Source: Phycisphaerae bacterium (GTDB taxonomy: Bacteria > Planctomycetota > Phycisphaerae > UBA1845). Taken from it: DNA of 64,000 nucleotides. The stretch lies in NCBI GenBank assembly GCA_963666835.2, contig CAXXGO010000001.1, forward strand, positions 224,001-288,000. The letters are read 5' to 3'. Below, piece by piece: positions 25,937 to 31,190 of this stretch. Positions within the stretch are counted from its first letter, which is position 1; every line of letters begins with the position of its first letter. The notes below the pieces were generated by a model. It saw nothing but the letters and a program-made list of their open reading frames with translations. It ran no database searches and was not told the DNA's origin. Made by a program: the position numbers and the translations under genes.

Positions 25937-26515
25937 CTACCAGCGAGGTGTCAGGATCGGCTTGCCGACCTCGAAGATCGATTGCGTCTTGAGCAGGGTG
26001 AGTTCCTCGGGGAACGCGTGAAAGGCATGCACATGAAACTCGTGATCACGGGCGTCGAAGTCAATGAACGTGAACGGGGCCAGCCCTTCGTAGCTCCACT
26101 CCGCGAACGGAACATAGAGCCCCCGGTTTTGCGCATAATGCACATAGTCGCGGTGCGTGGCGGGGAATAGTTGAGGCGTCATCCGCTCCACTTGTGTGGA
26201 GAGGATGTACTTCAGGTCATCGCTAAACGACTGGGAGTGATCCCGCTCTCCTCGGAACCTAAACGACGTAGCCAAGCCCGTCTTGGGCAACATATCCGTG
26301 TTTTCGGTTATCAGCTCGGTCATCACCTGATCCCCGGTCTGCACCGTGACCACGTGAGTCAGACCAACGACCCAGATCTCCGCATGATAGCGAGACTGCT
26401 CGATCCGCTTCACCCTCTGAATATGAAACAACTCCGGGTGAATCGCTCGCTGGTAGAGGCAGAAATGTAGGTCGTCGACGTGTTGCTGCTGCGGTTTTGT
26501 CTGTCCTTGTTCCAC
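25937..26515 (-). CDS. DUF2617-like conserved protein
   Basis: LY.R.IHPELF and H.FPEE...KTQS.FE pattern; GTG start with RBS gagga. Confidence 0.7.
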   Translation of the reverse strand: MEQGQTKPQQQHVDDLHFCLYQRAIHPELFHIQRVKRIEQSRYHAEIWVVGLTHVVTVQTGDQVMTELITENTDMLPKTGLATSFRFRGERDHSQSFSDDLKYILSTQVERMTPQLFPATHRDYVHYAQNRGLYVPFAEWSYEGLAPFTFIDFDARDHEFHVHAFHAFPEELTLLKTQSIFEVGKPILTPRW

Positions 26516-26809
26516 GAAGCATCCTCAAACGAGAGAGAGCCCTAGCCAAAGCCATCTTCAGAATTATACGGTCGGTCAATAGTAAATCCATGAATTTATC
26601 CTGCAAAGGCAACTAATTCCCACCATCCTCCGGTTGAAGTTGCAGTTCTGTTACAATCGCAAGACCAGCATAATACTCCGGATTTCGAGACATGCATCGA
26701 CTAAGGGTGTATTTTTAGGGCTGAAGATTGGCAAGTTGCCGGACTGCCTGCGGCTGCCCGTCGGTTCGGTTTGTTCCAATGGCAGGTTCCATCTACAATG
26801 CCCCTTGTT

Positions 26810-27259
26810 ATGACCGGTGAACGACCAGGCATTCTGTTCATAGTGCTCCTCCTCTCGGCGTTGGTTATGCCCGACTCCGGCCTGAGGTTGGTTTACGAGC
26901 CGATGACGGATGCCGCGGTGCGGCAGAAAATCCCTGGCGACGATCTGCCAGATAGGACCCCGCCCGGTGATAAGGAGCAAGAGGATGGCGAGGAGAAGCC
27001 CAATCCGCTTGGCCAGATTGCCCCGCAGCCGGCCCCGTTGGAGCAGTTTCAGCGGTCCGTGCGTATCTCACCCGCCTTCAAGACCGTCGTTCGTCCGGTT
27101 CGTCGGCATGCCTTTAGGGTCTTGTGGGCGGTTCCCGGGCCCACGCGCATTGATCGCGTGGTTACCGAATCGCGGTGCGACACAGTGTCGTTCACGGCCG
27201 TCGCTACGAGCATCCGCTCTCATGCACCACCCCTGCTTGCTTCGATCCTGTATTGCTGA
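26810..27259 (+). CDS. secDF upstream ORF; candidate translation-arrest (monitoring) peptide
   Basis: N-terminal hydrophobic segment GILFIVLLLSALV; C-terminal IRSHAPP; 115 nt upstream of secDF on the same strand. Alternative start at 26798. Confidence 0.6.
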   Translation: MTGERPGILFIVLLLSALVMPDSGLRLVYEPMTDAAVRQKIPGDDLPDRTPPGDKEQEDGEEKPNPLGQIAPQPAPLEQFQRSVRISPAFKTVVRPVRRHAFRVLWAVPGPTRIDRVVTESRCDTVSFTAVATSIRSHAPPLLASILYC

Positions 27260-27374
27260 TCGCCGCAGCGCAAGAGCGCTGGGCTTTTGATGGGATTGCA
27301 GGGGGCGCTCCCACTAGAAACCGACATACAACCACGAACTAAGGCGGCATGCCGCCTCAAAGGAGATACAACTT

Positions 27375-30300
27375 ATGCATGATCCGAACCGGATGATGAA
27401 GTGGCTTCTGGTCATCGGCCTCGTCGTGTTATCACTGGTGATCCTCTATCCGCCCAGTCAGAAGCTCAAGGGCGGAATCGATCTCGTCGGAGGAACCAGT
27501 CTCATGTTTGAGATCGATACGACGGGGTTGGAGAAGGCGGGCCAGCGCGGTCTTTCCTCAAGAGTGATGGATATCTTGAAGAACCGGGTTGACCCTAAAG
27601 GCCAATTGAACCTCGAATGGCGACCGGCCGGCAACACCCGACTGGAAATTCGCATGCCGCGTCCGCCGAAGGCGGCTTTGGAGCGTCGCGCAGCTTACAA
27701 CGCCGCGGTCGACCGACTGAAAGCAAGAAACCTCTCTCGGTTTGAGGTCGAGTCGGCGTTGAATGCGCCGCCGGCCGACCGGCCCAATGTCCTGGCAGGA
27801 TTGGTCCGGAACGCGCCCGAGCGAACGCCGCTGTTCGAGACGCTGGTTGCGGCCTTCGATGAGTACCAAGCGGCTCAGGGCTCTGATGACCTGGCAGTCG
27901 CGGAAGCGGCGGGGGCGGCGTATGAAGAAGCTATGGCCGCGGTGCTTGCCACCTCGATGCCCATCAACCGGCTGACGGACGTGCTGGCCTTGCCGCAGGG
28001 CGACAAGCGCAGAGAAGAGATCGACAAGCTCCGCGACGAGTTCCGTTCCTGCGATGCCGGCGAGATGGGCCAGGAAAACGGCAAGCTTTTGACCAAGGCC
28101 GTATACGCCTATGACGCGTGGGCGCAGGATAAGGCCGATCTCGAAGATCCATCGGACCTGAAGCGACTCATCCGCGGCGCCGGCGTGTTGGAGTTCAGGA
28201 TTCTAGCGGAGCGTGACGCCGCCAGCCCGACGCATACGATTGGCCCGAATGCGCAGGAGATCAGCAAGTACACCGAGCAGCTTGCCAAGTATGGAGCCCG
28301 TCCTCGGGCGGGCGACGTTTTCGAGTGGTTCCCGATTGAGAACGTAGTTCGTTTCCTGCACGCCGATGACCTGGCTTCGGTTGATGAGATTAAGGACCTG
28401 CCGGGTCGCCCGGTTGTGGAGGAATACGCCGGGCGCTATTACGTGCTGGCACACTCGGGCTCTCAGTATGGTCTGCTGCGTTCGTCCGGGAAGGGCGAAG
28501 GCAAGTGGAAGCTGCGGTACGCACGCCCGGATCGGGATCCGTTGACCGGAGAGAATGCGGTCATTTTCCAGTTGGATCCGCGGGGCGGGCAGATGTTCGG
28601 CAACCTCACCGGTCCGAATGTGGGGCGGCAACTGTGCATTTTTCTCGACGGCACGGCCATGTCGCACGCCAACATCCGGACTCGAATCACCGATCGGTGC
28701 CAGATTAGTGGCGGCTTTACGTTCGAGCGCATGCAGGAACTGGTGAAGACCCTGGAAGCGGGTTCGCTGCCCGCCCGGTTGAAAGAGACTCCTCTGTCCG
28801 AGAAGACCGTAGGGCCGAGCCTGGGTGAGACCAACCGGCGACACGGCGTCCAAGCCGCGGTTCTGGGTGGCATCGCAGTGGCAGTCTTTGTGTTGCTCTA
28901 CTACGGGCTTGCTGCCGGGGGCATGGCGGATGTTGCCTTGGCGTTGAACCTGCTGTTCGTACTCAGTGCGATGGCGTTGATGCAGGCGACCTTCACGCTA
29001 CCGGGTATTGCGGCGTTGATCTTGACCGTGGGTATGGCAATCGATGCGAACGTCCTGATCTTCGAGCGAATTCGCGAGGAACGAGACCGCGGTATCGTTT
29101 TCAAAAAAGCGCTGAATACGGGTTACGACAAGGCCTTCTCGACCATCATGGACGCCAACCTGACCACGTTGATCACCTGTGTGATTCTCGGGTTCGTCGG
29201 CAGTGAGGAAGTCAAGGGCTTTGCCATCGTGCTCGGCATCGGCATTGTCACCAGTATGTTCACGGCGCTGTTCGTGACTCGTTTGGTGTTCAACACCGGG
29301 ATTGCGCAGGGAGTGCTCAAGGACTTCTCGATGCGCCGCATCATTAGCCGGCCGTCAATCGACTGGCTGTCGTTGCGGAAGACATTCTGGCCGGTTTCGT
29401 TGATTGCGGTCGTGCTGGGCATGGGGATTTTCGTCACTATGAGTTCGGTGGATCCCGAGGCGGTCTACGACATTGAGTTCCTCGGCGGCACCAGTGTGCA
29501 GATCGATTTCAAACCGGGCGTGGAGATGACGGACGAGCAAGCCCACGATATCGTCGCGTCCAATCATGAGGATTCGGCGGGAGCGTGGCTCAGGCAGGCA
29601 GCCGATCGCCTGGAAGAAGCCGAGGCGTCCATTGGGGAGACCCCCGGGGAATTCACCTTGACGGCTGCCGGATTGACCGGAGAGCAGACCGGCGTGCTGA
29701 TGCGGGCGACTATCGAGGATCTCGTGGAGCGCAACGGCATTTACGCGACCGGTGGCGTGGCGACGTTTGTAGGCAAGTCCGGTGAACTCACTTTGGAGAA
29801 GTTCAAGGACAAGATCGTGGTCGCGGCCGAGGCGGCGCGGGAGGCGGCGAACCGCCTGCGCGGCGCGCGGGTGCAGAGCGTCGGGGAGGCGGAGCCGGAT
29901 ACCGAGGTCGGCCCGTCCTACGAAGTCGTCACCGTCGAGACCAACACGGCTCTGGTGCAGGCGGCCCTCCTGGCGGTGCTGGGAGATCGCCTGGTTGTCC
30001 AGCGGGCTCTGAACTTCGCGACGGTTGTCGACGACAACCTGACGAGGGAGCCTTTCTTCGTTGTCGAAGAGGCGGACCATTATCTCTCCGACGTGATCGG
30101 GGGCGACGCTAACTTCGACATCCGCCGGTTCCGCGGCGGGGTTGCGATCGAAGTCGTCCTGGACGAACGGGAGGAGCCGGTAACCGTGGCCGAGCTGGAA
30201 ACCCGCCTACGCGAGATCGGGCTCCAGCCGGAGTTCGAGCAATACCGCACGCGCGATTCATCCGTGTTCCCGGCCGGGGAAGTTGTGACCCGAAAGGGCG

Positions 30301-31190
30301 GCGAGGACTTCTACAAGCACTTTGCGGTGTTAGCGGTTGACGAGACTCTTCTCTACGAGGACGACGCTGCCCAATGGACCGATGGACTGGCGACGAAGCA
30401 GCTCGAACAAGTGGAAGCAGCGTTGGGTAGCGAGAAATCGCTATCGAAGGTCGTGAAATTCGCCCCGCAGATTGCCGGGCAGACAAAGAACCGAGCGATC
30501 TTCGCAGTAGTTCTGGCCTTGGGTGCGATCGTCTCGTACCTGTGGCTGCGGTTCGGAACGAAGGAATACGGCTTGGCCGCCATCGTGGCTCTGGTGCATG
30601 ACGTTGGAATCACGCTGGGGCTGGTCACCGTGGGCCACTTCGTATACGCGAGCTTCATCGGGAAGGCGCTGGCCATCACCGATTTCAAGATCGACTTGCC
30701 GATGATCGCAGCGATTCTGACGGTCATTGGATACAGCCTCAACGATACGATCGTCGTGTTCGACCGGATCAGGGAGAATCGCGGTCGGATGGGCTCGCTG
30801 ACTCCGGCGCTAATCAACGACAGCCTCAATCAAACCCTGTCGAGGACGTTGCTGACGTCGATCACGACCTTCCTGGTCGTGATCATTCTCTATATCTTCG
30901 GGGGTAAGGGCGTACATGGGTTCAGCTTCGCCTTGCTCATCGGAGTTGTAGTCGGAACATACAGCTCGCTGGGGATCGCGACCCCGCTGCTGTACCGCCC
31001 GGTGTTGCTCCGGGCGGTGGTGGCCGTAATCGCCGCGAGCGTGCTGATCGGCATCGTTGTTGTCGAGACGGATGACATGACGGCACGGTTGGTGTTGACG
31101 GCTATCGTGGCGGTGGGCGCTATCGCCTATCTAATCCGAAACGCGGCCACAAATAAGTACGCGAACCCGCGTTCTGCGGGGCGCGGCTAG
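27375..31190 (+). CDS. secDF: Protein translocase subunit SecDF (fused)
   Basis: GIDLVGG, VGPSLG, GMAIDANVLIFERIREE, IEFLGG, GYSLNDTIVVFDRIRE; RBS aaggag. Confidence 0.97.
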   Translation: MHDPNRMMKWLLVIGLVVLSLVILYPPSQKLKGGIDLVGGTSLMFEIDTTGLEKAGQRGLSSRVMDILKNRVDPKGQLNLEWRPAGNTRLEIRMPRPPKAALERRAAYNAAVDRLKARNLSRFEVESALNAPPADRPNVLAGLVRNAPERTPLFETLVAAFDEYQAAQGSDDLAVAEAAGAAYEEAMAAVLATSMPINRLTDVLALPQGDKRREEIDKLRDEFRSCDAGEMGQENGKLLTKAVYAYDAWAQDKADLEDPSDLKRLIRGAGVLEFRILAERDAASPTHTIGPNAQEISKYTEQLAKYGARPRAGDVFEWFPIENVVRFLHADDLASVDEIKDLPGRPVVEEYAGRYYVLAHSGSQYGLLRSSGKGEGKWKLRYARPDRDPLTGENAVIFQLDPRGGQMFGNLTGPNVGRQLCIFLDGTAMSHANIRTRITDRCQISGGFTFERMQELVKTLEAGSLPARLKETPLSEKTVGPSLGETNRRHGVQAAVLGGIAVAVFVLLYYGLAAGGMADVALALNLLFVLSAMALMQATFTLPGIAALILTVGMAIDANVLIFERIREERDRGIVFKKALNTGYDKAFSTIMDANLTTLITCVILGFVGSEEVKGFAIVLGIGIVTSMFTALFVTRLVFNTGIAQGVLKDFSMRRIISRPSIDWLSLRKTFWPVSLIAVVLGMGIFVTMSSVDPEAVYDIEFLGGTSVQIDFKPGVEMTDEQAHDIVASNHEDSAGAWLRQAADRLEEAEASIGETPGEFTLTAAGLTGEQTGVLMRATIEDLVERNGIYATGGVATFVGKSGELTLEKFKDKIVVAAEAAREAANRLRGARVQSVGEAEPDTEVGPSYEVVTVETNTALVQAALLAVLGDRLVVQRALNFATVVDDNLTREPFFVVEEADHYLSDVIGGDANFDIRRFRGGVAIEVVLDEREEPVTVAELETRLREIGLQPEFEQYRTRDSSVFPAGEVVTRKGGEDFYKHFAVLAVDETLLYEDDAAQWTDGLATKQLEQVEAALGSEKSLSKVVKFAPQIAGQTKNRAIFAVVLALGAIVSYLWLRFGTKEYGLAAIVALVHDVGITLGLVTVGHFVYASFIGKALAITDFKIDLPMIAAILTVIGYSLNDTIVVFDRIRENRGRMGSLTPALINDSLNQTLSRTLLTSITTFLVVIILYIFGGKGVHGFSFALLIGVVVGTYSSLGIATPLLYRPVLLRAVVAVIAASVLIGIVVVETDDMTARLVLTAIVAVGAIAYLIRNAATNKYANPRSAGRG

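Follow-up and report, generated by a model that had tools for sequence, protein, structure and literature searches.

A conserved leader gene before secDF in a Phycisphaerae order, probably encoding a His-type RAPP-like ribosome-arrest peptide

The DNA analyzed here, called the window, is a stretch of 64,000 nucleotides (nt) from the genome of a Phycisphaerae bacterium (assembly GCA_963666835.2, contig CAXXGO010000001.1, positions 224,001 to 288,000 of the forward strand). Coordinates refer to positions within this stretch unless another contig is named. Directly before the fused secDF gene of the window lies an open reading frame (ORF) of 149 amino acids (aa), here called the leader ORF, whose product begins with a hydrophobic segment and carries the tetrapeptide HAPP close to its C terminus. 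We consider its conservation, its likeness to peptides that arrest the ribosomes translating them, and the ways in which it might affect secDF. The leader ORF, its parts, and secDF are as follows.

26810..27259, plus strand: leader ORF, 149 aa plus stop, with coding-like GC content by codon position and homologous ORFs in the same place in relatives
26831..26869, plus strand: N-terminal hydrophobic segment ILFIVLLLSALVM, residues 8-20, with Arg5 before it (hydropathy)
26870..27145, plus strand: variable linker, acidic and Pro-rich, residues 21-112 (alignment A3)
27146..27232, plus strand: conserved C-terminal module of 29 residues, R113-P141 (RIDRVVTESRCDTVSFTAVATSIRSHAPP; position-wise information profile)
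27221..27232, plus strand: HAPP motif, codons CAT GCA CCA CCC (sequence)
27233..27259, plus strand: unconserved tail LLASILYC plus TGA, with 0.5-0.9 bits of information directly after Pro-Pro
27375..31190, plus strand: fused secDF, 1271 aa, with two SecD_SecF_C stretches and SecDF_P1_head (Pfam)

The leader ORF begins with an ATG at 26810 and ends with a TGA at 27257-27259. Two alternative in-frame starts lie upstream: an ATG at 26798, which gives the 153-aa version held in the public protein collection, and a TTG at 26771 (162 aa). GC content at codon positions 1, 2 and 3 is 0.66/0.49/0.70 in the leader and 0.63/0.42/0.77 in secDF, which is the same kind of pattern, and a gap of 115 nt separates the leader stop codon from the secDF ATG at 27375. 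All of these features of the leader, including its length, its hydrophobic N terminus, the position of the HAPP codons, and the distance to secDF, agree with a preliminary description of the locus that had proposed an export-monitoring arrest leader. The same description had called HAPP C-terminal, and the motif is indeed near the end of the peptide, but not at it, because eight residues follow. When the genome was scanned for further copies of the downstream gene, strong SecD_SecF_C matches were found in the secDF at 27375 alone, in an assembly that is 92% complete. The scan gave six other SecD_SecF_C matches, in ORFs of ~1000-1090 aa, with scores of 21-43 bits.

Relatives of the locus were drawn from the secDF genes of 40 related genomes and from 79 loci in public metagenome-assembled genomes (MAGs) titled Phycisphaerae, Phycisphaerales or Planctomycetota. 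Seven of the 79 MAG loci offered no secDF 5' end or no upstream DNA and were excluded (L061, L070, L086, L088, L098, L121 and L122), and de-duplication left 94 unique secDF loci, all from the same Phycisphaerae order. At 84 of these, a same-strand ORF upstream of secDF carries X-[A/G]-P-P within its last 25 residues and stops 74-426 nt before secDF (median ~148 nt). The motif occurs in only 18/1140 (1.6%) of the remaining ORFs of 45 aa or more from the same DNA, and the leader layout is far above chance. The most common variant is HAPP (46 ORFs), followed by TGPP (10), HGPP (9), NAPP (4), QGPP (3), QAPP (2) and others (10). His occupies the first motif position in 55 of the 84, Thr in 11, Gln and Asn in 5 each, other residues in 8, and Arg in none. 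Of the ten loci that lack a motif ORF, a YajC-like gene takes its place at six, and at the other four nothing recognizable is present. The expectation, set out in the preliminary description, that relatives would keep an upstream ORF with its hydrophobic start and motif while the middle diverged is therefore borne out across the order, with the motif in the form [H/Q/N/T]-[A/G]-P-P.

Because the count of 84/94 itself selects on the motif, two motif-blind tests were made. In one, upstream ORFs of 80 aa or more that contain a hydrophobic 13-mer were considered, and the one nearest to secDF was taken whatever its C-terminal end. Such an ORF is present at 79 of the 94 loci and carries the motif at 72 of the 79; six of the other seven are YajC-like. 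The second test used a motif-free profile (A2), built from 19 mutually detectable homologues that were cut 10 residues before the motif, and searched it against 1.84 billion representative proteins at E <= 0.001. This search returned 37 proteins, including the window's own. X[AG]PP stands near the end of 35 of the 36 others, and the one exception looks truncated.

The position-wise information content of the family shows where conservation begins and ends. With sequences aligned on the motif and its first residue numbered 0, information is at background to position -26, rises sharply at -25, remains high to the second Pro (+3), and then returns to background. The module so delimited has the consensus R-L-[E/D]-R-[V/L]-V-A-[E/Q]-[A/S]-R-C-V-[A/T]-T-S-L-A-V-V-A-P-P-V-[R/Q]-S-H-A-P-P, with Arg at -16, -22 and -25. 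Ala at -6 and the Pro-Pro pair are present in 36/36 sequences, and Cys at -15 and His at 0 in 27/36 each. In the full-length alignment (A3), the invariant columns are A132, P140 and P141 alone. Across the family, the motif is written with every one of the four Pro and four Ala codons and with both His codons, and this synonymous variation indicates that selection acts on the peptide. In direct comparisons the leader shares ~27% identity with its best relatives (the best has E = 1.5e-13), whereas for the SecDF N terminus the identity to these relatives is ~63%, which means that the leader diverges faster.

The ribosomal exit tunnel holds about 29 residues' length, and the nascent chain within the tunnel at the stall is predicted to consist of the R113-P141 module. 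By analogy with the arrest peptides ApdA and ApdP, the ribosome is predicted to stop when its P site is occupied by Pro140 (27227-27229) and its A site by Pro141 (27230-27232). This placement of the RAPP stall is known from toeprints and cryo-EM of ApdA and ApdP (PMC7897499; PMC10951233). Conservation that ends at the predicted A-site residue would be expected of an elongation-arrest peptide and not of a binding tail, and the layout conserved across the order appears to be the signature of a Sec-monitoring arrest peptide.

Features outside the module are consistent with such a peptide. The segment ILFIVLLLSALVM has a mean Kyte-Doolittle (KD) hydropathy of 3.2 as a 13-mer and matches a helix that AlphaFold2 (AF2) places at residues 6-18. 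Judged from hydropathy, flanking charge and this modeled helix, it would be a Sec signal or a signal anchor of the N-in type. Hydrophobic starts are general in the family (13-mer mean KD >= 1.7 in 79/84 ORFs), and the eight residues preceding the hydrophobic core carry a net positive charge in 58/79 and a net negative charge in 2/79. The linker that follows has a mean column identity of 26% and zero conserved columns in alignment A3, and its predicted local distance difference test (pLDDT) values are 53-61. In the window's leader, 120 aa separate the hydrophobic core from the predicted P-site Pro, close to the family median of 121 (interquartile range 113-134.5). That median resembles the spacers of two known export monitors, whose medians are 131.5 for long SecM and 133 for VemP (PMC10987492). 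AF2 modeling with an alignment of the leader family gave a mean pLDDT of 60.8 and a predicted template modeling score (pTM) of 0.20, with helices at residues 6-18 and 113-123 alone, which suggests a peptide with no confident fold.

Public collections yielded no description of the leader. Pfam matched zero families in the peptide, a word-indexed search of 5.8 billion proteins (46 candidates) matched the leader to itself alone, and a sequence search of PDB chains at E <= 10 gave zero matches. A class does exist, however, for peptides of this layout. Criteria for finding Sec-monitoring arrest peptides were set in Sakiyama 2021 (PMC7897499) and Fujiwara 2024 (Nat Commun, PMC10987492), and the latter groups RAPP-like upstream ORFs (uORFs) of secA and secDF other than SecM, ApcA, ApdA and ApdP into a family termed RQH. 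According to its authors, membership rests on the motif and not on homology. The query motifs include HAPP, HGPP, QAPP and TGPP; at least three uORFs within one order must share the motif, and the spacer between signal and motif must exceed 30 aa (PMC10987492). The leader is a secDF uORF without annotated function, and it has an N-terminal signal, a conserved motif from this list, and a spacer longer than 30 residues. Its taxon lies outside the ranges of SecM, ApcA, ApdA and ApdP, and the PDB search gave no match, which may set it apart from those families. The statement in the preliminary description that no named family could be assigned has thus been overtaken, and the RQH family even includes a tested HAPP member (PMC10987492). 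On the strength of its sequence and its conservation, the leader is probably a conserved secDF leader gene encoding a His-type RAPP-like (RQH) ribosome-arrest peptide that senses export, with stalling as a prediction.

The tested HAPP member, uDF_RQH_Lachnospirales, is the nearest precedent. It arrests B. subtilis ribosomes in vitro, and the mutation H129A weakens the arrest (PMC10987492). For representatives of the RQH family, arrest at the motif has been demonstrated with PURE translation, toeprinting and reporters. Like the leader, uDF_RQH_Lachnospirales is encoded upstream of secDF, begins with a localization signal, has more than 30 aa between this signal and the motif, and carries near its C terminus a RAPP-like motif that is conserved within an order. 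The two differ in phylum and order and have zero detectable sequence relation. Features of the leader family's own, relative to RQH, are the conserved 29-residue module and the fact that Arg is never first in the motif (0/84). As described in PMC10987492, uDF_RQH comprises 11 groups and 416 entries, and the genome set behind it includes at least 94 Phycisphaerae. TGPP and HAPP are frequent in the leader family and both belong to the motif list; given this and the many Phycisphaerae genomes covered, some members of the leader family were likely captured in that set. In the text of Fujiwara 2024 the only Planctomycetota group is uA_LPPP, and a comment in a script mentions RQH-like secA uORFs in order UBA2386. 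The literature text names no Planctomycetota uDF_RQH group, the paper's list of secDF groups lying outside this comparison.

ApdA, from actinobacteria, and ApdP, from alpha-proteobacteria, likewise precede secDF, begin with a signal or signal anchor, and carry X-A-P-P a few residues from the stop codon. Both need upstream sequence besides the tetrapeptide, as is predicted for the leader. More generally, RAPP-like motifs are reported to need sequence context (PMC10987492; PMC7897499), and HGPP and RxPP have been selected as stallers in E. coli (cited in PMC7897499). In ApdA and ApdP the Arg of the motif is essential; it is buried in a pocket of 23S rRNA, where it is held by stacking on Psi2504 and by five hydrogen bonds (PMC7897499; PMC10951233), whereas the leader has His. 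Their target is presumably a secondary secDF2, in contrast to the sole secDF found here, and they have zero sequence homology with the leader, PDB chains included. VemP of Vibrio and SecM of E. coli follow the same logic: an export signal comes first, ~120-130 residues separate it from a C-terminal arrest module, and a gene for a Sec component lies downstream. Their arrest sequences are unrelated to that of the leader, and their stall opens a hairpin that masks the Shine-Dalgarno (SD) sequence, an output that is unsupported across the leader family. Within Planctomycetota, uA_LPPP (Phycisphaerales, UBA1161 and WQYP01, as given in Fujiwara 2024) also combines an export signal and a Pro-rich C-terminal motif with a Sec gene downstream. 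It differs in that it precedes secA and has the motif LPPP; the secA leader of the window's genome ends in GGLYGP-stop.

The taxonomic distribution of the leader brings another gene into consideration. Within the sample, the leader is restricted to one order. In the other orders of the class, a YajC-like gene stands directly before secDF in 17/17 genomes, usually preceded by a tgt-like gene, and 0/17 have a motif ORF there. Pfam recognized YajC at this position in all four other-order genomes that were checked and in one genome of the same order that has no leader. The yajC of the window's genome is on another contig (G000:C6:36179-36412, minus strand; L127). In the window's order the leader ORF sits in the usual place of yajC. 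A signal-bearing RGPP or RAPP uORF precedes secDF in four of the 40 other Planctomycetota families that were sampled:

52-109 nt before secDF, in other classes: uORFs ending RGPPAA-stop (L129), RAPPTAL-stop (L134), RGPPFILA-stop (L147) and RGPPAA-stop (L166)

Most of the other sampled families have a YajC-like or ribosomal-protein-like gene before secDF, as judged by eye. RAPP-like secDF leaders, with a motif uORF in 4/40 families, thus have a patchy distribution across the phylum. The first motif residue is Arg in the four leaders from outside the order and His inside the window's order.

These observations are what make it worth asking whether the leader is instead a functional small protein, exported or anchored in the membrane, for example a lineage-specific SecDF accessory that has replaced yajC and whose tail binds or sorts without arresting the ribosome. 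The consistent yajC neighborhood of other orders, the YajC in the same-order genome that lacks the leader, and the separate location of the window's own yajC all agree with such a replacement, as does the single-pass type of the leader, which is like that of YajC. Conservation nevertheless ends exactly at the second Pro and leaves later residues free, which would not be expected of a binding tail, and the 29-aa module fits the length of the exit tunnel. The lack of a confident fold (pTM 0.20) and the freely evolving linker also speak against an accessory protein, and stalling has been shown experimentally for this class of motif (PMC10987492; PMC7897499). We therefore regard the accessory protein as unlikely.

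A different objection accepts that the ribosome slows at Pro-Pro but attributes this to an ordinary EF-P-dependent pause, in which case the leader would report EF-P or translation capacity, or would merely slow ribosomes, rather than monitor secretion. X-P-P does pause ribosomes when EF-P is absent, and some differences between the in vitro and in vivo behavior of RAPP, HAPP and QAPP members have been ascribed to the use of PURE translation lacking EF-P (PMC10987492). HAPP is not depleted in the proteome (see below), and three relatives have an efp-like gene, identified by eye, upstream of secA. A plain polyproline pause, however, would need no 29-residue module, export signal or conserved spacer, and ApdA and ApdP arrest even with EF-P present (PMC7897499), all of which makes a simple pause quite improbable. 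That the ORF is nothing but a chance frame in GC-rich DNA, with the 5' region of secDF acting as a non-coding leader, is hardly credible at all. The word-indexed search that found only the leader itself and the absence of any Pfam family are compatible with a spurious frame, and Pro/Ala/Arg/Gly-rich spurious ORFs are common at such GC content (93/25231 ORFs have the motif near their end). Frame, strand, position, hydrophobic start and motif are nevertheless kept in 84/94 loci with synonymous codon changes, and homology is detectable both by direct comparison and in the 37 profile matches. The chance-ORF reading is already contradicted by this synteny, codon and profile evidence.

If the leader is indeed an arrest peptide, its operation might be envisaged as follows. 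By the time a ribosome stalled at Pro140-Pro141, the N-terminal signal, exposed ~120 residues earlier, would engage SecYEG, as the signal and the spacer length suggest. The pulling force of translocation would then release the stall, and because release depends on pulling, weak export would lead to a longer stall. A long stall would in turn cause more SecDF to be made from the same transcript. The following features bear on transcription and on this last step.

26516..26809, plus strand: intergenic region that separates the divergently oriented DUF2617 gene and leader ORF, with a GC drop to 0.43-0.47
27230..27304, plus strand: predicted long hairpin with its foot at the A-site Pro codon, a terminator-like core at 27262-27285, and then UUUUGAU
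27308..27311, plus strand: stretch predicted to pair with the secDF SD sequence in ~45% of the free-RNA ensemble
27343..27365, plus strand: small hairpin GGCGGCATGCCGCC at 27343-27356, then the SD-like AAGGAG at 27360-27365, 9 nt before the ATG

The DUF2617 gene (Pfam) lies upstream on the minus strand at 25937-26515, and the intergenic region likely holds the promoter of the leader-secDF unit. A scan for sigma-70 consensus sites over 26400-27500 found zero, including between the leader ORF and secDF. Because no sigma-70-like site was found between them, leader and secDF are likely on one transcript. In the window, a model of the RNA offers one route to higher secDF expression: the stalled ribosome would melt the foot of the long hairpin and free a G-run that competes with the anti-SD stretch. 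When the stall footprint was held open in the model, pairing of 27308-27311 was lost, and the unpaired probability rose from 0.45 to 0.55 for the SD and from 0.57 to 0.87 for the ATG. The modeled gain is modest and does not appear to be general in the leader family. The stability of the long hairpin is not significantly greater than that of shuffled sequences (z = -1.4). An intrinsic terminator was also considered as a general feature and rejected, as inspection by eye found a U-run following the best hairpin in few relatives.

Several findings weigh against reading the leader as an arrest peptide that controls secDF, and most of them concern the output. Holding the footprint open at 82 loci changed the modeled accessibility of the ribosome-binding site (RBS) by a mean of +0.003 (16 up, 17 down), so that unmasking of the SD by the stalled ribosome is unsupported as a family-wide output in this thermodynamic modeling. 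Duplex energies between the RBS and the region of the stall site showed no advantage over control segments and were in fact slightly poorer. A coupling through Rho sites was set aside, given that the spacers are without a bias of C over G (C>G in 48/84, p = 0.08). A search of Rfam with 26400-27500 at E <= 1 gave zero matches, and the sole signal at the RNA level is weakly elevated structure that begins ~20 nt past the P site (mean z = -0.54). The peptide itself also raises doubts. The tail after Pro-Pro is 2-3 residues long in 53/84 family members, and the eight residues of the window's leader exceed this family mode. The precedent set by uDF_RQH_Lachnospirales is a qualified one, since its arrest in E. 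coli PURE is weak and in vivo it ranks with the weaker arresters (PMC10987492). Finally, HAPP is not avoided among 3443 long ORFs of the window's genome, where 13 instances are observed and 11.9 are expected from a second-order estimate. Taken with the conserved layout, these results give partial support to the arrest leader of the preliminary description: its signature is present, and the proposed up-regulation of SecDF finds no gain of RBS accessibility in the 82-locus model.

Motif usage in the same 3443 ORFs is informative about where the strength of an arrest might reside. Avoidance is strong for RGPP (4 observed, 16.7 expected) and mild for RAPP (15 observed, 22.5 expected), while HGPP, QAPP and QGPP are not under-represented. 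CGPP (1 observed, 6.6 expected) and FAPP (7 observed, 22.1 expected) are also low. Because HAPP is not avoided, any arrest by the leader must depend on the upstream module. The HAPP tetrapeptide is unlikely to stall the ribosome by itself, which is consistent with the length of the module and with the published need for context.

One extension of these ideas holds that the order possesses two sensors. A His-type X-A-P-P arrest would act before the sole secDF, with its power in the 29-residue module rather than in the tetrapeptide because HAPP is unavoided in the proteome and RGPP is avoided; a termination-type leader ending R-x-G-G-L-Y-G-P-stop would act before secA. The secDF output would then arise not from classical SD unmasking but from some other coupling, such as the message being held at the membrane or the hairpin just past the ribosome. 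We consider this combined proposal speculative and unlikely as a whole.

Should the stall predicted for the secDF leader be real, it would represent a natural His-for-Arg variant of RAPP with an unusually long and sharply bounded tunnel module. It would act on the sole secDF of a planctomycete lineage, in the position that yajC has in other orders, and would offer structural and mutational studies a contrast on how arrest is shared between the residue preceding Ala-Pro-Pro and the distal tunnel contacts. Sec-monitoring leaders in Planctomycetota would also extend from secA to secDF. This kind of system has been described already, so the leader would add a lineage rather than a class, and the gain is incremental for that reason.

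The genome of the window contains other small ORFs that resemble the leader. Such a motif lies near the end of 93/25231 ORFs, as mentioned above, and 11/25231 (70-300 aa) pass the filters, the secDF leader included. Several small ORFs on contigs C5 and C6 combine a hydrophobic segment with R[AG]PP or HAPP 1-4 residues before the stop codon. Their strand-space positions are ~908488, ~2268496, ~759581, ~1043997, ~2329196 and ~667236 on C6 and ~303523 on C5, and some are 90-290 nt upstream of genes with signal-peptide-like starts. They could represent additional leaders of the arrest type, or frames that are open by chance in GC-rich DNA.

The leader of secA in the same genome lies outside the window:

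L128:965-1363 (G000:C1:1656793-1657191), plus strand: secA leader ORF

It encodes 132 aa with a hydrophobic segment, ends in VSRIGGLYGP-stop, and lies 80 nt before secA. The pattern [R/K]-x-G-G-x-x-G-P-stop ends the upstream ORF at 16/24 secA loci of same-order relatives (L169-L197), with endings such as AQIGGLYGP-stop, SRMGGLHGP-stop, YRLGGLYGP-stop, WRLGGLYGP-stop and TRLGGRFGP-stop. Neither the readable secA table of Fujiwara 2024 nor, in the context of a secA leader, any paper text searched contains the GGLYGP-stop motif. From its sequence, the secA leader is a candidate termination-stage (Pro-stop) arrest peptide that is distinct from uA_LPPP and apparently undescribed, and it may be a more original lead than the secDF leader. 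An EF-P-like gene, identified by eye, stands directly upstream of secA in L175, L177 and L194 and further upstream in L197, a notable neighbor for proline-based leader peptides.

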